The translations under genes were made by a program, and so were the position numbers. A stretch of DNA of 64,000 nucleotides from an uncultured archaeon (lineage in GTDB: Archaea > Nanobdellota > Nanobdellia > Woesearchaeales > CAIVOO01), in contig CAIVED010000027.1 in NCBI GenBank assembly GCA_903904885.1, positions 1,558 to 65,557 of the forward strand. The letters are read 5' to 3'. This document shows, piece by piece, positions 25,793-54,373 of the stretch (position 1 is the stretch's first letter; each line of letters starts with the position of its first letter). A model generated the notes under the pieces. It did not search any database. It saw nothing but the letters and a program-made list of their open reading frames with translations, and was not told where the DNA came from.

Positions 25793-25816
25793 TGTGCTTC
25801 CTGAACGACCTTTTAC

Positions 25817-25945
25817 GCCCCCGTAGCTCAGCAGGTTCCTTGAGAGCCTAGCTTTCAGGGTTGCAAAGAGCGCATGGCTGTTAACCATGAGGTCACCAGA
25901 CAGAAAGATAATCTTTCTGGGTGAATTCGAGTCTGGTCGGGGGCG
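25817..25945 (+). tRNA. tRNA-Asn(GTT) with two non-canonical introns (D-loop 25837-25866; position 53/54 25900-25925)
   Basis: Acceptor GCCCCCG/CGGGGGC, anticodon arm CATGG-CTGTTAA-CCATG, T-arm ACCAG/CTGGT; both introns form bulge-helix-bulge motifs (GCAG/TTGC and CACC/GGTG central helices). Confidence 0.9.
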
Positions 25946-25947
25946 TA

Positions 25948-26718
25948 TTATTTTCTTAGTAAATTTTCTCGAATTGAAAGAGAAGTACCTGGAGGCACAA
26001 ACCCTTGTTTTTTCCAGAGAAAGTACTTTGTTAACTGGACAGGCGAATTAAATCCAATTTCAGACATCCATTTATTCAGTCTTGGAACACCATTAATCTG
26101 AATGTAATAATTTCTGTGAACCTTCCCCTTTCTTGTCTGAAATCTGGAATTTGAATAAAATTTAAATTTTAAATCTTCCAGTATTTTCTTTGTTGAATTA
26201 TGTAAAACTTCGTCAGAAGTTTGATAATCAATAACTGGGTAATAATTGATGTTTTTGTGCCTTGCCTTGAAAGCAAGGCTAAAATCAGCGTCAGCGAGAC
26301 CTCTCAGGAATGACCTTTTAATTTCAGGATTGCTTTTAAGAATTATGCTTGGAAACTCATAATTTGACTTTTTCCCTAAAGGCAATCCGCATTTTTCATG
26401 GAGAAATGAGAGTATTGTTTTTGAGTATATTGTTATATTAGCTGTTGTCTTTTTTGATAAAACTTTTACATTTTTATTAAACAGCTTTTTTATTAATGGA
26501 CATAAGAAGGATTTATACCATTTTAGCTCTTCAGAAAGATTTCCATCATATGAAATATAGTAATTAACCCCATTCCTCTTTTTATAAACACTCATCGATC
26601 CGTCTCCAAGATGAAACCCGAGCAGATAAGCTAATTCTAGATTTAGTGTTTCGGGCAGTTTTATTTTTTGTTTCAAGTCTAAATCACTAAAAGAGATATC
26701 TGAGGAGTCAAATTTCAT
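25948..26718 (-). CDS. Free-standing LAGLIDADG (DOD/intein-type) endonuclease
   Basis: LAYLLGFHLGDG and FLRGLADADF motifs; stop codon 2 bp from the tRNA-Asn 3' end; low GC. Confidence 0.85.
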   Translation of the reverse strand: MKFDSSDISFSDLDLKQKIKLPETLNLELAYLLGFHLGDGSMSVYKKRNGVNYYISYDGNLSEELKWYKSFLCPLIKKLFNKNVKVLSKKTTANITIYSKTILSFLHEKCGLPLGKKSNYEFPSIILKSNPEIKRSFLRGLADADFSLAFKARHKNINYYPVIDYQTSDEVLHNSTKKILEDLKFKFYSNSRFQTRKGKVHRNYYIQINGVPRLNKWMSEIGFNSPVQLTKYFLWKKQGFVPPGTSLSIRENLLRK

Positions 26719-26821: not shown

Positions 26822-26896
26822 GGGCCCGTAGCTTAGTTTGGCTGGAGCGTACGACTGATAATCGTAAGGTCCCGCGTTCAAATCGCGGCGGGCCCA
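26822..26896 (+). tRNA. tRNA-Ile(GAT), intron-less
   Basis: GGGCCCG/CGGGCCC acceptor, TACGA-CTGATAA-TCGTA, TTCAAAT T-loop; TTTATAAA at 26789. Confidence 0.95.
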
Positions 26897-47176: not shown

Positions 47177-47749
47177 CTACTTCTGATTTGTAGCTGCTTC
47201 TTCCTCGCATGCGCCTGCGCTGCACTTGCATGTTTCCTTCTCAGAAAATGCCCTTTCATCAGTTGAGCAGTAATATTCCATCAAAGTTTGGTCATCCTTG
47301 CAGTAATCCTCATAGACACGAAGATCATTTGTCAAAACCTTGCCTTTAACCGTGAAATTCATCCCGCCGTCTGTATCGTTGCAGTTTGCATAAGAAACAC
47401 ATGCACCTTTTTGGCAGAACGTTGTATCACCGCACTGGGCAATTGAGCCGCTCTTGTGAATCTCTTTGCATCTCGCCTTTGCCGTTCCGGGATTCTCGCA
47501 CTTTGGCTCGTACAAATCCCCCACAGGATTGTCCTGGAAGCAGTAGGCATTCTCAGCCCTCGGAACCCCGCAGTCTGAATCAGAAGTGCAGGCAATCTTT
47601 GCCGGCGCTGCTGCAGGAGTCTCATTGACCGCTACAGGCTGTGCTGCTGTTGCATTCTGCTGTATCTGCGGCAGATTATCCTGAACCTGCTTCTGGCTGC
47701 ATGCAAAAAGCAGAACAGAAAGAAGAATCATCACGATTATTATACGCAT
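47177..47749 (-). CDS. Cys-rich lipoprotein with CxD[ST]DxG module
   Basis: Lipobox LFAC; CNDTDGG..KG..DYC..LMEYYC..CKC..GAC. Confidence 0.7.
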   Translation of the reverse strand: MRIIIVMILLSVLLFACSQKQVQDNLPQIQQNATAAQPVAVNETPAAAPAKIACTSDSDCGVPRAENAYCFQDNPVGDLYEPKCENPGTAKARCKEIHKSGSIAQCGDTTFCQKGACVSYANCNDTDGGMNFTVKGKVLTNDLRVYEDYCKDDQTLMEYYCSTDERAFSEKETCKCSAGACEEEAATNQK

Positions 47750-48594
47750 TTTCCCTCAAGGCATGAGCACGTGTGCTCCGCATATACACATCTCCCGCTC
47801 ACACAGCTCCATTCCCAGAGCTTATTTACATCAAGGCAGATATCGCCTATGTTCTGCCCGAATCGGTCTGTGCATATTCCCTTAACATTATAGTTTGCCC
47901 CGCCATCGGTGTCTGTGCATCCGCTGTTACTGCTTGAGTTTGATGAGGAGGAATTCCTGCTTGAATTTGAAGATGAATGGGTTGCTGTCGATGACTCATT
48001 TGATGATATGACCTGCTGGGCGCTGAATGTCTGCTTTTTTATGTTGTTGCTCTCATCAGGCTCCTTAAAAGCATTGCCTGAATCCAGGGTAAGGGTAAGC
48101 GCATAAATTCCCTCATTCAGGTTGTATGTATTTCCTATCTTGCTGGTCAGCCCACCGGCATCTATTGTTGTATTGTAGGGATAGTCCTCTGATTTGATCA
48201 CATCATTCCCCTTCATTATTTTTATATTGTAAGCAAAATTTTTTATGCTCTCTGTTCCCACATTCTTGATTTTAAATGAAACATCAAAATCCTCCCCGGG
48301 AAGGGGATAGATTGTGCTCATAAGGAAATTCGAAACTGCCAAGTCTGCTTTAGTTGGTGTTCCCTGGCCCGCAGGAGCTGTTGCATTAGAAGCAGGCGCA
48401 GTACTCTGGTTTGCTGCGGTCTGATTCGCTGTCTGGTTCGAAGAAGGCGCCGGCTGGGCTGCTGTGTTGTTTGAAGGCGCAACTACCGGAACAGTTCCGC
48501 CGCCGTTGGTAACATGGATTACCTTGATTCCCTGCTCCACGCATCCCAGAAGGAATAGCAAAGCAATGCAAACTATTATTATGTGGATACGCAT
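47740..48594 (-). CDS. Lipoprotein with CARDB-like domain and CxD[ST]DxG module
   Basis: LLGC lipobox from ATG 48594; DLAV..IKNVG..DESNN; CTDTDGG module. Confidence 0.7.
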   Translation of the reverse strand: MRIHIIIVCIALLFLLGCVEQGIKVIHVTNGGGTVPVVAPSNNTAAQPAPSSNQTANQTAANQSTAPASNATAPAGQGTPTKADLAVSNFLMSTIYPLPGEDFDVSFKIKNVGTESIKNFAYNIKIMKGNDVIKSEDYPYNTTIDAGGLTSKIGNTYNLNEGIYALTLTLDSGNAFKEPDESNNIKKQTFSAQQVISSNESSTATHSSSNSSRNSSSSNSSSNSGCTDTDGGANYNVKGICTDRFGQNIGDICLDVNKLWEWSCVSGRCVYAEHTCSCLEGKCV

Positions 48595-48929
48595 TGTCCC
48601 TTTGAACACTCGCATCTTATGTTTTTGCTTGTCATCTTGCCGTCTTCGCAATAATATTCAACAAGGAACGGGCCAACGCATTTGTCAGCATAGCCTGTTC
48701 CGCCAACTGTAACTATCCCCTTTACGCTTTGGTCAATTCCGTTATCAGAATCAGAGCATCCTGCCTGGACTGGTGCGCTGTTGCCAAGAGCTGATGTTGC
48801 CTTGCCCTGAACAGGAGCAGATACTGTATTTCCTGAGCAGCCTGTAAACGTAAGCGAAAGCACAAGCGCCATGCTCAACAGCATCAGAATCCATAAAAAC
48901 AGAAAATTTCTCTGAATAGGGTGCATCAT
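48579..48929 (-). CDS. Small lipoprotein with CxD[ST]DxG module
   Basis: FTGC lipobox; CSDSDNG..KG..DKC..LVEYYC..CEC..GQC. Confidence 0.7.
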   Translation of the reverse strand: MMHPIQRNFLFLWILMLLSMALVLSLTFTGCSGNTVSAPVQGKATSALGNSAPVQAGCSDSDNGIDQSVKGIVTVGGTGYADKCVGPFLVEYYCEDGKMTSKNIRCECSKGQCVST

Positions 48930-49094: not shown

Positions 49095-49102
49095 TTTTAA
49101 AA
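49095..49102 (+). promoter_or_regulatory. TATA box in front of the tRNA-Gln 5' fragment
   Basis: TTTTAAAA about 25 nt before 49128, same spacing as the other tRNA promoters. Confidence 0.6.
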
Positions 49103-49127
49103 ACAAGCATAATACAGAATATTTCAC

Positions 49128-49152
49128 AGCCCCGTGGTGTAGTGGTCAAGCA
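49128..49152 (+). repeat. Duplicated 5' 25 nt of mature (spliced) tRNA-Gln
   Basis: AGCCCCGTGGTGTAGTGGTCAAGCA equals exon 1 (50095-50116) joined to the first 3 nt of exon 2 (50142-50144). Confidence 0.9.
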
Positions 49153-49187
49153 AAAATATTTAAATACTCCCAAACTGAATTTATTCA

Positions 49188-50147
49188 ATGAGAATTAAAC
49201 TAAAAAAATTAAAACAAAAAGAACTGATTAATAATTTCAAAAAAGAAAACAGTCTCACCTGGGCAGAACTTTCTGATGTACTAGGCGTCAAAAAGGGGGC
49301 ATTGCTGAACTGGTATTATGAAAGAACACTATTACCCCGTTCAGTTTATAAAAAGATAGACCCAAGAGGCATTTATAGAAAGTTCATAATACAAGAATAT
49401 AGTGAAAAGTGGGGAAAAAGTAAAGGGGGCCACAATTCAAAGGGGAATACTAAGTATGTAAAAGCCCCTCAATATTCCGAAAAATTAGCGGAGCTTGTAG
49501 GAATAATTCTTGGTGATGGAAATTTGAATTTGTACAATAAAAACGGCTTTGGAACTTATTCAATTAGAATAACTGGCGATGCCAACAAAGACGCGGAATA
49601 CTTAAGAGTTTACATACCCCATTTATTTAGAGATATTTTTAACGTAGAAGCAAAAATATACAAACCAAAAAACAATAATGGGTTAGTAGTGCTAGTTCAT
49701 AGCAGGATGGTCCTAGAGCATATGGAAAAAATGGGTTTAAAGAATGGAAATAAGCTTAAAAATCAGATTACGATACCCAAATGGATATGGAGTTCTGATT
49801 CTTATTTGAGAGCATGCACAAGAGGATTAATCGATACGGATGGTTCAATTTATGAGCTTAAAACACACTGGCCAGGCACTTATCAGATAAATTTTGAGAA
49901 TAGCAATATGACCCTACTAAAAGACTTCAGAAAAGCTCTGATTCACATAGGGTTTATTGTATCAAAAATCTGCTCTAACCGGTCCAAGATAAGAGGGAAA
50001 AAGATATATATAACTCGTAAAGACCAGATAGAAAAATATTATAAAGAGATAGGTTCTTCAAATCCTAGAAAGAGAGAAATACTTAAAAGAAGCCAGCCCC
50101 GTGGTGTAGTGGTCAAATTTCTCTCTGAAAAGAAAGACCAGGCATAG
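49188..50147 (+). CDS. Free-standing LAGLIDADG endonuclease with N-terminal HTH; 3' end overlaps tRNA-Gln
   Basis: LTWAELSDVLGV HTH; LAELVGIILGDG and TRGLIDTDG; TTTAAATA at 49159. Confidence 0.88.
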   Translation: MRIKLKKLKQKELINNFKKENSLTWAELSDVLGVKKGALLNWYYERTLLPRSVYKKIDPRGIYRKFIIQEYSEKWGKSKGGHNSKGNTKYVKAPQYSEKLAELVGIILGDGNLNLYNKNGFGTYSIRITGDANKDAEYLRVYIPHLFRDIFNVEAKIYKPKNNNGLVVLVHSRMVLEHMEKMGLKNGNKLKNQITIPKWIWSSDSYLRACTRGLIDTDGSIYELKTHWPGTYQINFENSNMTLLKDFRKALIHIGFIVSKICSNRSKIRGKKIYITRKDQIEKYYKEIGSSNPRKREILKRSQPRGVVVKFLSEKKDQA

Positions 50148-50210
50148 TGGCCTTTGGCAGTCTGAAACTGAAGACAGCCATTGACGGCGGTTCGAATCCG
50201 CCCGGGGCTA
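50095..50210 (+). tRNA. tRNA-Gln(TTG) with D-loop intron (50117-50141) and 37/38 intron (50158-50175)
   Basis: AGCCCCG/CGGGGCT acceptor, GTGGC-CTTTGG|A-GCCAT, GGCGG-TTCGAAT-CCGCC; BHB helices GGTC/GACC and CTTT/GAAG. Confidence 0.9.
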
Positions 50211-50266: not shown

Positions 50267-51880
50267 ATGAGACAGTACCTGTTTTTTACGCTATTCCCGA
50301 TTTTGCTGCCTATTTTTATTATTGCTGCAATCTTTCTGCCAATTTTTTTGCAGAACCCTTACATAAGCAGTGTAAAATTTTCCGCGAACATCAGCAATAG
50401 CTCTGATATTTATGTTGAAGAAATCATTTCAATTGACTCATTCAGCAATTATTACCGTTCTGATTTCAGGGAGTTTGAGGGAAATGCCATTGTAGAAGAT
50501 ATAAATGTCTATGACACAACGGAAAATGTTCCCGTGCAGTTTGAGTTGGCGCAAAAGGATGGGAAAATAAAGGGCGTTAAATGGACATTTCTAACAAACG
50601 GAAAAAGCAACAGAATAGTCCTGTCCTACCGGTTGAAAAATGCCATTGCTCTTTATTCTGATGTGGCAGACTTTGAATGGAACTACAAAATATCCCGCAA
50701 GACAGGGCCGGGCATTCGCGCCCTTTCCAATATGCCTGAGGTCATAGCATCATATATTGAAGGGGCGAGAACTGATTTCAAATTTTATCTGCCAAGTGCG
50801 GGAATCCATGCCTGGTCCTATCCGCTTAAACAAAGGGACATCAAAATTGGCAACAATACGGTGGATTACGGGGGGCAAACAGGCCGGTTCAGCAGCAGTG
50901 TCAGCCTGGCAAGGGGGATTGATTTCAGGATTGCATTTCCTTCGGGAATAATGGCAGGAAATAAAATTGATGCAGAAGGACTCTCAAAAATAGAAAACGA
51001 GGAAAAAATCATCGGAATAACCAGGCCGTTGGTTAAATTTGCCGCGCCGGTGTTAATTGCAATCCTGCTCTTCCTATTGGTCTATTTTGCTGTTGGCAGG
51101 GAATACAAGACTGAGGGATATGAAGCGGTTTATGAACGGGATATCCCCTACGATTATTCGCCGGCCATAGTAAGCGCTCTTGTCAATCAGGACACAAAAG
51201 AGCCCAAGCAAGAAGACTTCATAGCGGTCATTCTCAATCTCAGCACAAAGGGCTACCTCAAATTCCAGCGGGAAAAAAATGACTATGAAATAACATTCAT
51301 AAACAAGGACATTTCCGCCCTTGCCCGGCACGAACAGCATGCAATCGAAATACTTAAGGAATATTCAACAAACGGAAAGTTGTCGTTTAATTTCCTGAAA
51401 GGCCTTATTGAAAAAGACCAGACAGCATTCAGGATAATGTTTCGCGAGTGGCAGGGCAATGTGAAAAAAGAAGCGGTTGGCATGAACTTTTTTTCAGCTG
51501 CCCCGGCCATAAGGTTGCTGTTCTACATTTTCTGCTTCGGATTTTTAATTTACGGAATGGGCCTCGGGCCATTTTCGCTGATGATACGGGACACTGTTCT
51601 TTTCCTGGGAATACTCTGCGCAATAATTCTTGTTTTCGCCATGAACATAATTTTCAGGCAGGCGCTGCCTAAAAGAACAAGGAATGGCTCGCTTCATTAC
51701 GCAAGGTGGATGAACTTCAAGAAATTCCTTGAGGATTTCAGCGAGCTTAAGCGCCATCCTCCGGAATCAATAGTGGTGTGGGAAAGGTACCTTGCCTATG
51801 CACTGTCTCTTGGCGTTGCTGACACTGTGAAGAAAACGATGAGTCTGTCCAAAAAGACAAAAGTGCCGCCAGTTATATGA
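50267..51880 (+). CDS. DUF2207-family membrane protein (no Gly-rich tail)
   Basis: [46 protein letters not shown]; paralog of 52619..54373. Confidence 0.8.
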   Translation: MRQYLFFTLFPILLPIFIIAAIFLPIFLQNPYISSVKFSANISNSSDIYVEEIISIDSFSNYYRSDFREFEGNAIVEDINVYDTTENVPVQFELAQKDGKIKGVKWTFLTNGKSNRIVLSYRLKNAIALYSDVADFEWNYKISRKTGPGIRALSNMPEVIASYIEGARTDFKFYLPSAGIHAWSYPLKQRDIKIGNNTVDYGGQTGRFSSSVSLARGIDFRIAFPSGIMAGNKIDAEGLSKIENEEKIIGITRPLVKFAAPVLIAILLFLLVYFAVGREYKTEGYEAVYERDIPYDYSPAIVSALVNQDTKEPKQEDFIAVILNLSTKGYLKFQREKNDYEITFINKDISALARHEQHAIEILKEYSTNGKLSFNFLKGLIEKDQTAFRIMFREWQGNVKKEAVGMNFFSAAPAIRLLFYIFCFGFLIYGMGLGPFSLMIRDTVLFLGILCAIILVFAMNIIFRQALPKRTRNGSLHYARWMNFKKFLEDFSELKRHPPESIVVWERYLAYALSLGVADTVKKTMSLSKKTKVPPVI

Positions 51881-51900
51881 GAACTCAGTTATAAAATTTC

Positions 51901-52527
51901 TTAACGTGCAACCGCAATGGTGCTTGGGCTTCTTCTTCCGATTATTGGACCGTCAAGAACTTCAAAGCCCGCCTTTCGCAAATTTTCCCTGACCCATCCG
52001 GCATAGCTGTAGGTGCTGAGCTTTCCGCCGGTTTTCATTTTATTCCTGATATTCCTGAAGAATTCTTCGGTCCACAGTTCAGGGACTTTCGCAGGGCTGA
52101 AGGGCGCGAAAAAAACATAGTCTGCTTTTTCTCCGGCTTCCAGGATTTTTTCCCTTGCATCCCCAAACATCATGACAAGTTTGCATCCTTTTGATTCGTA
52201 GACATTTTTGCCCTCAAAAAATCCCCTTACAAATTCCTTTATCATTTCAAAGCTTTTGAAATCCGCATCAATCTCAAGAATTTTTTTTAATATCGTTTCA
52301 TCATTCTCAAAACAATAAACTGTTGAAGGCCCCAGATCCAGCGCAGCCGCAGCACTGTACCCCAAACCGAAGCAGATATCAAAAATCACCTTTCCGGGAA
52401 CAACATCCAATGCCCTGACATGCTTTTCAATGGCCTCCTGTTTAGCTCCATAAAGCGTGTGATAATTATCTCCCACTTCATCACTATGGTAAGTTATTGA
52501 TCCGTCCCGGGTGATTATTTTGTTCAT
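51901..52527 (-). CDS. MnmC1/MnmD-like tRNA methyltransferase
   Basis: TRDGSIT, YH...GA..EA..K, DICFGLGY, FSPAKVPELWT, LSTYS. Confidence 0.8.
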   Translation of the reverse strand: MNKIITRDGSITYHSDEVGDNYHTLYGAKQEAIEKHVRALDVVPGKVIFDICFGLGYSAAAALDLGPSTVYCFENDETILKKILEIDADFKSFEMIKEFVRGFFEGKNVYESKGCKLVMMFGDAREKILEAGEKADYVFFAPFSPAKVPELWTEEFFRNIRNKMKTGGKLSTYSYAGWVRENLRKAGFEVLDGPIIGRRSPSTIAVAR

Positions 52528-52618
52528 GAGTGTGATTCAATTTAGTAACCCTAATAAAGTTATTCCTTACCCATAAAAAACGCTGCTTTTTTAAGCAAAT
52601 AGTTCATTTATCCTAAGA

Positions 52619-54373
52619 ATGAACAAGAAAATCCTGCTTTTGCTGTTTCTGTTAATAATCCCTTTCGTATCCGCAAAATCCTACACCCTTGACAAAGCTA
52701 ACATTGATGTTATTGTTAATGATGACTCAAGTTTGTCTGTAAGTGAATTGATAACATTCAATTTCAACGGGCCTTTCACGTTTGCCTACAGGGATTTCGT
52801 TTATGATAAGGAAGTTATTGAAAATCTTAGTGCCTATGAGTATTCAAACAACCAGACAACTGAACTAAAATCAGAAATAACTTCGGTTAATGGCGGCGAA
52901 AGGATTACATGGCATTATTCCGCGGAAAATGAAAAAAAGCAGTTTCTAATAACATACACGCTGAAAAACGCATTGAAAGTCTACAATGACGTTGCAGAAT
53001 TCAACTGGAAAATCTGGGGCGACGGCTGGGACCATTCCCTGAAAGAAATGGTTGGCACATTTAAGCTTCCAAAAGCGGCTGAAAAGCCAACAGATGTTTA
53101 TTCCTGGGGGCATCCCGCATTAGACGGAAAGATTGCAATACAAAACAACCAAAAAGTGATCTTCCAGGCATTTGACATCCCTGCACAGCAGTGGGTTGAA
53201 TTGAGGGTTATTTTTCCGGCTAGCCTGATTTCAAACGCAGATTCTGCGAGCAGGATTAATTCAGACGGGCTCCAAAACATAATAAACGAAGAAGCCAATT
53301 ACGGCAAGAAATCAGAATCCGCAAAAAAATTCGAGGCGCTTATTGCAAAGTTGTTATTCTGGTTCATTGTAGGGCCAATCATATTAATTATAGTATTGTT
53401 CATTATCCTTTACCTTGCCTACGGCCGGGAGCCGGCTGTAAATTACGAACAGGAATATGAAAGGGAAATTCCCTATGACTATTCCCCTGCAATTGTAAGC
53501 GCGCTGATAGAGCAGGCCAGCAAAAAGCCGAATGCAAGGGATTTTGTCGCAGTCCTCCTCAATTTATGCACCAAGGGCCATCTTAAGCTTCAGGTTATCC
53601 AGAAGAAAAAATTTCTCGGCATTTTCGGCAAGGATTCAGATTACGAAATAATCCTGCAAAAGAAGGACCGCTCAAAACTTGCAGGCCATGAAAAAACAGT
53701 CCTTGGAATAATTGAAGGTTATGCAACAGAAAATAAAATCGCTTTTGAAGAGCTTAAGAGCGAGATACGAAGCGACAGCATGGATTTCAGGATGAAATTC
53801 ATGGACTGGCAGAAGGAAGTTAAGGATGAAGCAACAAAACAGGGCTTTTTTGCAAAAAGCAGCGTTCACCTCATCTTCAATATTATTTGCATAGCGCTGA
53901 TTGTAATTGGCATATTTGTCTTCTCTTTTGGCTTTGGAATTGCAGGTTTCATCGGGCTTTTCATGAACAACGCCATATTCCGGCAGGCTCTTCCAAGGAG
54001 AACAGAAAAAGGGGCATTGCATTACAAAAGGTGGATGAACCTTAAAAAATTCATAAAAGACTTCAGCGCAATGGAGGAGCACCCGCCGGAGTCCATTGTT
54101 TTGTGGGAGAAATATCTTGTTTACGCTGTAACTCTCGGCGTTGCAGATGAAGTGCAGAAAAGCATGAAACTGATTCTGCCGGATAAAAACTACACCAATT
54201 CCACCATATTCATTGGCGCTGTTAATTACCACGCGCTTAGCACAGCAGGATTTGTAAATTCTGTCAACACATTCAGCTCCTCATTCGCAACTGCCTCAGG
54301 CACATCCGGCTCAGGAGGATTCGGAGGAGGCGGTGGCGGCGGTGGAGGAGGAGGCGGAGGGGGAGCTGGGTAA
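52619..54373 (+). CDS. DUF2207-family membrane protein
   Basis: [24 protein letters not shown]-terminal [10 protein letters not shown]...G tail. Confidence 0.88.

Follow-up and report, generated by a model that had tools for sequence, protein, structure and literature searches.

A homing-endonuclease cassette that probably replaced the 5' part of a tRNA-Gln gene in an uncultured archaeon

Archaeal tRNA genes may be split, reduced to fragments or interrupted by non-canonical introns; how these states arise has long been a question, and published models attribute them either to integrating plasmids and viruses or to the transposition of introns by an unknown mechanism. The question is raised in compact form by one locus of a 64,000-nt stretch of DNA (hereafter the window; contig CAIVED010000027.1) from an uncultured archaeon of the order Woesearchaeales. 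On its + strand, the promoter and first 25 nt of a tRNA-Gln gene are followed by the gene of a LAGLIDADG endonuclease, whose 3' end overlaps a second, complete tRNA-Gln gene with two introns. How did one tRNA gene come to possess two 5' ends, with an endonuclease gene between them? Comparison of sequences indicated that a homing-endonuclease cassette quite probably replaced the 5' part of the tRNA-Gln gene.

The genome bearing the window is called G000 here (1.31 Mb, 44 contigs, completeness 98.7 %); other G numbers designate genomes of the same order and L numbers designate loci, and positions are those of the window unless stated otherwise. The locus was composed as follows:

49096..49103, + strand: tRNA-type TATA-like box TTTAAAAA of the ancestral tRNA-Gln gene, starting at -32 of the stump
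49128..49152, + strand: 5' stump of an intron-less tRNA-Gln(UUG), tRNA positions 1-24, delimited by the repeat and by alignment to the intact genes of G001 and G003
49153..49187, + strand: left cassette end, bearing a TATA-like box (~49155-49165, ~28 nt 5' of the ATG), read from the sequence
49188..50147, + strand: gene of a single-chain, double-motif LAGLIDADG endonuclease of 319 aa, from its open reading frame (ORF), Pfam and fold
50095..50116, + strand: exon 1 of the complete tRNA-Gln, tRNA positions 1-22, inside the 3' end of the endonuclease ORF (Rfam, repeat)
50117..50141, + strand: 25-nt non-canonical D-loop intron, between positions 21 and 22 in our own count (Rfam insertion)
50142..50157, + strand: exon 2, from the 3' strand of the D-stem to position 37, with the anticodon TTG and the TAG of the ORF (sequence, Rfam, fold)
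50158..50175, + strand: 18-nt canonical 37/38 intron (Rfam insertion in the anticodon loop)
50176..50210, + strand: exon 3, from position 38 to the discriminator (Rfam)

Every element named in an earlier reading of the letters alone (the original prediction), namely the tRNA-type TATA, the stump, a second TATA, the ORF and the full tRNA-Gln, was found in its place. The stump was disclosed by a 23-nt exact direct repeat (49127-49149 and 50094-50116), the longest one between 48500 and 51000, which comprises tRNA positions 1-22 and the base at -1; the first 22 nt of the stump are identical to the downstream exon 1. Its last three nucleotides, GCA, equal the start of the downstream exon 2 and are followed by unrelated A/T-rich DNA. 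The stump therefore reads as an intron-less junction that is only 3 nt deep, a short match already pointed out in the original prediction.

Of the 30 Rfam-detected tRNA genes tabulated in G000, about two thirds displayed a TTTAWAWA-like box at -32/-33. No tRNA-type box was found at -32/-33 of the complete downstream tRNA, its best match lying at -57. The ancestral promoter is now the one that drives the stump, and it probably reads through into the cassette (a scan for sigma-70 promoters and terminators was uninformative for an archaeon). For the endonuclease gene, the spacing between its own TATA-like box and its ATG suggests a leaderless mRNA. An inverted repeat holding a GGTGAT-like ribosome-binding sequence was observed just 5' of the endonuclease ATG in L025 (~1470-1500 of that locus), L026 (~1460-1500) and L057, where it may be a hairpin for translational control; it was absent in G000, with its leaderless-type spacing.

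The endonuclease matched Pfam family LAGLIDADG_3 (E 4.4e-11) and, weakly, LAGLIDADG_2. Motif 1 (..ILGDGN) and motif 2 (..IDTDGS) were both present, and the acidic residues D110 and D218 were invariant across six aligned homologues. An AlphaFold2 model of the 319-aa protein (mean predicted local distance difference test score, pLDDT, 82.7) displayed the alpha-beta-beta-alpha-beta-beta-alpha double-domain fold; with this model as query, Foldseek gave a probability of 1.00 to intein endonucleases, I-AniI, I-Tsp061I and I-DmoI. I-DmoI, also matched by profile (E 2e-5), and the intein endonucleases were the nearest solved relatives. As judged from motifs, acidic residues and predicted fold, the enzyme looks intact. 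The first ~70 aa form a helical domain in the model and gave no family match, so that of the "HTH-LAGLIDADG" gene proposed originally the LAGLIDADG part was upheld by Pfam, motifs and fold, while the HTH part came down to a predicted helical bundle. The GC content of the ORF (33.6 %) is below that of the genome (42.5 %). The ORF reads through exon 1 and the D-loop intron, and its TAG stop (50145-50147) sits in exon 2, beyond the 3' splice site, as had been noticed before.

The complete tRNA-Gln (50095-50210) scored 45.2 bits in Rfam (gathering score 29); its alignment contained two insertions, located in the D-loop and the anticodon loop. ARAGORN missed it by default and called it Phe once introns were allowed. 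Borders of exons and introns are our own reading of the Rfam alignment and of a minimum free energy (MFE) fold. In the MFE fold, the D-loop intron displayed a helix UGGUC/GACCA, a 3-nt AAA bulge and a helix UUUCU/AGAAA; as we read it, the AAA bulge would hold the 5' cut, and at a distance of 4 bp the 3' cut would fall in an internal loop instead of a bulge. The motif may thus be described as a relaxed form of the bulge-helix-bulge. The 37/38 intron, with a CUUU/GAAG pairing, 3-nt bulges on both sides and the anticodon stem as outer helix, reads as a regular bulge-helix-bulge. The single 25-nt bulge-helix-bulge intron of the original prediction accordingly held good as a D-loop intron, its motif being relaxed at the 3' site, and the second intron (18 nt, 37/38) had been overlooked. 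One EndA homologue is encoded in G000.

The G000 tRNA set comprised 31 Rfam matches, many of them 85-140 nt long, and 18 ARAGORN matches despite the completeness of 98.7 %; it seems to be rich in non-canonical and multiple introns overlooked by standard finders.

An assembly artefact, considered in the original prediction as a possible source of the duplication, is unlikely as far as contigs can show. Four DNA runs from one freshwater-sediment study, possibly the source samples, were available as independently built Logan contigs. With zero differences, the junction between stump and ORF was bridged in two of them (X1 record 2, X4 record 22) and that between ORF and tRNA in all four (X1 record 5, X2 record 8, X3 record 15, X4 record 24).

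The state of the locus before the cassette was encountered in relatives. In G001, of the same genus, the orthologous upstream gene and the TTTAAAAA box preceded a complete tRNA-Gln(UUG) with a short canonical intron only; neither an endonuclease nor a D-loop intron was found at this syntenic site. G003, G005 and G006, of the same family, displayed an intron-less tRNA-Gln(UUG) beside homologues of the same two upstream genes, again with no endonuclease. The D-arm of G003 is contiguous and equals the end of G000 exon 1 joined to the start of G000 exon 2. The homologous site is hence empty in four other species, and the intact gene expected by the original prediction behind the upstream promoter was found there, in G001 directly behind the orthologous promoter. 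The opposite outcome, relatives devoid of the ORF that nevertheless share the intron and the relic, was not encountered in the family, both being absent. An intron similar to the 37/38 intron of G000 occurs in G001, which suggests that the 3' part of the tRNA gene is resident and that the 5' part alone was replaced. The two adjacent genes marking the syntenic tRNA-Gln locus in G001, G003, G005 and G006 have their G000 counterparts at 47740-48929 on the minus strand; these encode secreted Cys-rich proteins sharing a C-terminal module.

The same design was found elsewhere. A protein search covered 401 genomes of the order, G000 and genomes flagged as unpublished included, and homologues of the endonuclease (E <= 1e-10) occurred in 114 of them. 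The G000 enzyme was best matched, at 49 % identity, by a protein from another family, and the homologue of G004, in the same family, displayed 43 %. Directly 3' of all nine closest homologues, the G000 enzyme included (E <= 2.4e-36), lay a tRNA-Gln, of UUG and CUG isoacceptors by our own reading. An endonuclease adjacent to, but outside, its intron-bearing target was thus not confined to G000; it recurred in G004, G378, G167, G284, G166 and G309. DNA matches of G039 to the 5' end of the ORF were rejected as A-rich low-complexity sequence. Stumps of the relatives ranged from exact to decayed:

G004 (another genus of the same family): promoter, exact 22-nt stump followed by GGA (equal to its own exon 2 start), three bases, then the ATG
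G378: stump followed by TCA (matching exon 2), with two differences from the new exon 1
G167: stump internally deleted
G323: 5' part of the stump degenerate
G284: stump cut to 14 nt; the endonuclease gene is a pseudogene with two in-frame TAG codons and a deleted N-terminus

The cassette of G004 ended in a tRNA-Gln(CUG), whose 20-nt intron occupied the same D-loop site as in G000. No stump was found in G166, where the downstream tRNA was complete.

Beyond the order, a profile-guided scan of public genomes gathered 80 loci from Pacearchaeota, Woesearchaeota, Nanoarchaeota, Iainarchaeota, Aenigmatarchaeota and Micrarchaeota and, at the weaker end, from bacteria of the Candidate Phyla Radiation (CPR) and Omnitrophota. 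Rfam and ARAGORN missed or mislabelled intron-rich tRNAs (20 loci run together gave only eight Rfam tRNAs, and multi-intron tRNAs visible by eye were missed), for which reason a finder of our own was used; it relies on the T-arm and acceptor pairing, is blind to tRNAs with T-loop introns and gives no anticodon. A same-strand tRNA starting between -100 and +30 of the ORF stop was found at 63 of the 80 loci, against ~1.5 expected from the other tRNA calls of the same loci (39 in 267,906 bases). By their 5' signature, 36 of these 63 were Gln-like, 16 Glu-like and eight of the long-arm bacterial type. The stop of the ORF coincided with tRNA positions 13-15 in 30 of the 63 and with positions 8-10 in another 11 (41 together), that is to say, the tRNA supplies the TAG. 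Stumps were defined as sequences at most 300 nt upstream of the ORF with at least 14 of 22 positions identical to the new exon 1, and were present in 18 of 61 upstream windows versus 7 of 171 controls; at a stricter cut of at least 18 of 22, these figures were 7 of 61 and 1 of 171. In many loci, as in G000, ~38 nt separated the end of the stump from the ATG, and a TATA-like box stood a few bases past the stump; the whole layout of stump, three nucleotides, a few bases, TATA-like box and ~38 nt from stump to ATG was also displayed by L053, L058, L063, L066, L075 and L094. The survey of tRNA adjacency and flanking fragments proposed with the original prediction revealed a distribution much wider than had been noticed there. 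Mobility is supported by independent occurrences in both tRNA-Gln isoacceptors and in other genera and families, as read from their sequences. Together with the empty sites and the decayed copy, this recurrence favours the homing cassette already suspected in the original prediction.

Some homologues were arranged differently. Two further LAGLIDADG genes were observed in G000. One of them (25948-26718, minus strand, 256 aa, GC 31.5 %; region 25815-26718 of the window) runs up against the 3' terminus of a multi-intron tRNA on the plus strand (~25815-25947), read as Asn(GUU) and listed by neither ARAGORN nor the Rfam genome scan, and starts 104 nt from a tRNA-Ile (26822-26896). The other (229 aa; L003 1483-2353, contig C4) is followed, 7 nt past its stop, by a multi-intron tRNA of Ser/Leu type (~2179-2353 of L003), of which Rfam detects just the T-arm. 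In L041 (G303) and L048 (G220) the homologue is oriented antisense to a tRNA, of which the 3' end (acceptor and T-stem) forms the repeated fragment; the full tRNA copy of L048 carries an insertion in its T-loop. These two look like a version of the same design that targets the T-arm. In L118-L131, from CPR bacteria and Omnitrophota, endonuclease homologues overlap the 5' ends of tRNAs that are mostly of the long-arm Ser type by our own reading, and diverged 5' stumps occur upstream in at least two of them (L128, L131). To our knowledge, bacteria are devoid of bulge-helix-bulge splicing.

A homing element needs a resident copy that differs from the target it cuts, and our own comparison of stumps with their new copies was consistent with this. 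Where the new copy carried a D-loop intron, positions 10-22 of the stump displayed no difference (G000, L057, L076, L092, L112), one difference (L054, L058, L068) or three differences (L065). Where the new copy was intron-less (73-74 nt), its D-stem differed from the stump at two to four positions or by an indel (L053, L063, L066, L075, L094). In L053, L066 and L075 the three nucleotides after the stump fitted the D-stem of the stump itself and not that of the new copy; in L063 and L094 they did not fit. In this correlation, the resident copy always departed from its stump near the break, through substitution or through the intron. Three nucleotides separated the end of the stump from the intron site in G000, G004 and G378. 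Protection of the resident copy by the D-loop intron, as the original prediction had it, thus gains comparative support from the way in which stump D-arm identity tracks intron presence, and appears rather likely.

The following course of events may be proposed. The mobile unit would be a cassette of ~990 bp consisting of its own TATA-like box, the LAGLIDADG gene and a replacement exon 1 with the 25-nt D-loop intron. The enzyme would cut an intron-less tRNA-Gln gene in the D-arm, near position 24/25, and the cassette would be copied in from a donor during repair. Of the old 5' part, the promoter and tRNA positions 1-24 would persist as a dead stump, and the tRNA would be rebuilt from the exon 1 and intron of the cassette joined to the resident 3' part. 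The resident copy would then cease to be a target, because the intron breaks the D-arm sequence 3 nt from the cut. Since the rebuilt tRNA has no promoter of its own, it would probably depend on read-through from the promoter of the stump, from that of the endonuclease gene or from both. The 5' end of the tRNA would be cut out of such a transcript, and the cellular splicing endonuclease would perform two rounds of splicing. The enzyme may still be active at present.

Several observations weigh against this reading or limit it. G323 carried no intron at the D-loop site although its stump ended at the same place; its insertion lay a few bases further 3'. A second tRNA-Gln gene of G004 displayed an uninterrupted D-arm identical to the spliced D-arm of the cassette gene, and yet it was not invaded; the enzyme may therefore be inactive, may read further bases, or ectopic homing may be rare. 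The C-terminal tail of the G000 enzyme departs from the conserved tail and extends to the stop in exon 2. No cassette-free allele of the G000 organism was found in the four DNA runs, so that presence and absence at the homologous site are documented between species. Two joints that had been taken for empty alleles (49149->50176 and 50116->50176) were rejected: other letters intervened and the upstream flanks differed, and they therefore belong to intron-less tRNA-Gln genes of other organisms, whose contigs resume matching exactly at 50176. Three genes located 3' of the tRNA-Gln in G000 (50267-54373) are missing in G001 before the shared epimerase gene, and the locus has consequently undergone more than one change. 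D-loop introns at the tRNA-Gln site were far commoner than the endonuclease. A pattern search for this intron gave matches in 62 of the 401 genomes, among which ~52 true tRNA-Gln genes of ~47 genomes were recognised by eye, with the intron right after a D-loop ..GGYCAA, the rest having an intact D-arm and a canonical intron. Twenty regions with a D-loop intron and no listed close endonuclease were sampled, of which 19 were usable: no endonuclease remnant was detected within 1.3 kb upstream in any of the 19 (tblastn, E <= 0.01), all 19 genes displayed an ordinary promoter, and one (G048) a stump. The intron could accordingly have arisen before the cassette and independently of it.

Either the intron predates the cassettes, then, or it spreads without them, and the proposed homing would offer a route for the latter. 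A broken recipient end bearing exon 1 would transfer the ORF and the intron when it pairs with the stump of the donor, and the intron alone when it pairs with the proximal exon 1 of the donor. As either copy of exon 1 can pair, the intron could spread alone, which would explain why D-loop introns are commoner than the endonuclease. At L138 (G048, C19), a 16-nt tRNA-Gln stump was observed ~100 nt upstream of a tRNA-Gln with a D-loop intron, with no ORF between them and an inverted partial copy beside; this may be a cassette that lost its ORF.

Three other explanations were weighed. The first accepts arrival by homing and supposes that nuclease activity has since been lost, the element being either in decay or kept, for instance, for a DNA or RNA binding that aids tRNA expression. 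The promoterless tRNA, which depends on transcription through the ORF, would fit with such a domesticated or dead element, as would the uninvaded gene of G004, the aberrant C-terminus in G000 and the occurrence of LAGLIDADG-derived regulators such as WhiA among the fold matches. Against it stand the catalytic acidic residues and both motifs, all intact, and the distribution of the family, which is patchy and includes pseudogenes instead of being conserved; relatives of the same family also manage without the endonuclease. This explanation was considered unlikely.

Less probable still, and rejected here, is that the stump is a true exon 1 and that 49150-50141 (~990 nt, with the ORF and the duplicated exon 1) forms one endonuclease-bearing bulge-helix-bulge intron comparable to those of archaeal rRNA genes, the alternative offered by the original prediction. 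Both descriptions are formally equivalent at the DNA level, the only canonical tRNA promoter belongs to the stump, and the GGTC of the stump could pair with the GACC by which the short intron is closed. However, in relatives the stump was internally deleted in G167, degenerate in G323, truncated in G284 and not found in G166, and the proximal exon 1 was complete in every case; a stump that decays beside a complete tRNA is not a required exon. In the predicted folds, the proximal exon 1 and the 25-nt intron form a stable local helix, whereas the sequence after the stump cannot form the inner helix. Nor would the start of an intron have any reason to match exon 2 over 3 nt, as was found in G000, G004 and G378 (GCA, GGA and TCA, respectively), and many cassettes combine a stump with an intron-less downstream tRNA.

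Integrase-type integration or a larger rearrangement, in which a plasmid or virus-like element entered tRNA-Gln and duplicated its attachment site, with the endonuclease as cargo and the three downstream genes as part of the same event, agrees with partial tRNA duplication as a hallmark, with the 23-nt exact direct repeat flanking the insert, with the 4.1 kb of extra downstream genes absent in G001 and with the precedent of a recombinase-encoding element in a Caldiarchaeum tRNA-Thr (PMC3293823), but it can hardly be correct, since the LAGLIDADG gene is the only + strand ORF of at least 60 aa between the repeats (no recombinase or transposase was found there), no 3' tRNA fragment occurs at the far end of the extra genes, where a 584-aa ORF abuts the epimerase gene, and a two-repeat unit of ~0.9-1 kb with the endonuclease alone recurs with unrelated flanks in G004, G378 and many public loci. 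The downstream block, treated here as a separate indel, contains a pair of paralogous genes for membrane proteins (537 and 584 aa) as well as a minus-strand gene of 208 aa between the tRNA-Gln and the epimerase gene; the 537-aa protein gave no match in a protein search of G001, where the epimerase gene appears internally deleted.

Returning to the homing cassette, a full-text literature search yielded no paper describing endonuclease-tRNA cassettes of such a design, most subscription journals and supplementary files being outside its coverage. The combination appears novel in that a LAGLIDADG gene stands alone, the tRNA 5' part is replaced, ORF and tRNA overlap, an intron or a stem change would confer immunity, and the whole is widespread. 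In the cyanophage psbA/F-CphI system, a free-standing endonuclease reportedly lies beside a group I intron and engages in "collaborative homing". There as here, the endonuclease is located outside but next to an intron-bearing gene, an intron at or near the presumed cut site would shield its carrier, and intron and endonuclease can move together or apart. In the present case, by contrast, the host is a tRNA gene, the intron is of the bulge-helix-bulge type instead of group I and the enzyme is a LAGLIDADG one; moreover, the 5' part of the target is duplicated, a promoter-bearing stump is left, and the ORF overlaps the tRNA, from which it usually borrows its stop. Free-standing endonuclease ORFs of fungal mitochondria (e.g. 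Allomyces atp6) are said to bring a duplicate target end and to displace the original as a relic. They share with the cassettes an endonuclease accompanied by a resistant replacement of part of the target and a displaced, non-functional original. They differ in concerning organellar protein genes, usually the 3' end, with resistance through synonymous or foreign sequence, whereas here the tRNA 5' part is replaced and resistance would come from D-stem changes or an intron. The rRNA-intron enzymes I-DmoI, I-Tsp061I and I-PorI display the same fold and motifs, reside in archaeal stable-RNA genes and belong to introns served by the same cellular splicing endonuclease; their ORFs lie inside the intron and the host gene is not duplicated, in contrast to an ORF located 5' of, and overlapping, a duplicated exon 1, with a 25-nt intron devoid of ORF.

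For T4 SegB, originally reported, it is said, in 2008, we know of no tRNA stump, intron or ORF-tRNA overlap. It is free-standing and tRNA-associated and promotes inheritance of its own tRNA region, but it belongs to another enzyme family and to a phage, not to a cellular chromosome. It is described as a free-standing GIY-YIG homing endonuclease of a phage tRNA gene cluster (PMC13096335). The nearest published case was tRNA-Thr(GGU) of Caldiarchaeum subterraneum, where a 5' fragment is followed by a 1.8-kb recombinase-encoding insert and by a tRNA that has gained a further intron (Sugahara et al. 2012, PMC3293823). That locus, one in a single population, was explained there by attP/attB site-specific recombination. 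It shares with the cassettes the 5' fragment of a less interrupted tRNA, the mobile insert and the full tRNA with an added intron, as well as the idea that the intron would be delivered by a mobile element and would block re-invasion; it differs by its recombinase, a homing endonuclease being the sole cargo here, in dozens of genomes and several tRNA species.

By extension, and only tentatively, the disruption of tRNA genes in DPANN archaea could be driven quite generally by LAGLIDADG cassettes of this family, relatives of which occur in CPR bacteria. Their homing would be directed at the D-arm, or for some at the T-arm, and would leave a replacement made resistant by compensatory stem changes or by a short protein-spliced intron; the intron may spread alone, and stumps would feed split tRNA genes. 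If this is true, promoter-bearing stumps would be the raw material for split tRNA genes. To the question from which we started, these loci would contribute a concrete agent, namely a one-gene cassette with an inferable cut site in the D-arm and a "before" state in sister genomes, together with two alternative solutions to immunity, stem substitution or intron. The design would account for the many tRNAs that finders overlook in these small genomes, and it would provide a large natural set of LAGLIDADG enzymes whose targets may be read from the neighbouring stump and tRNA.

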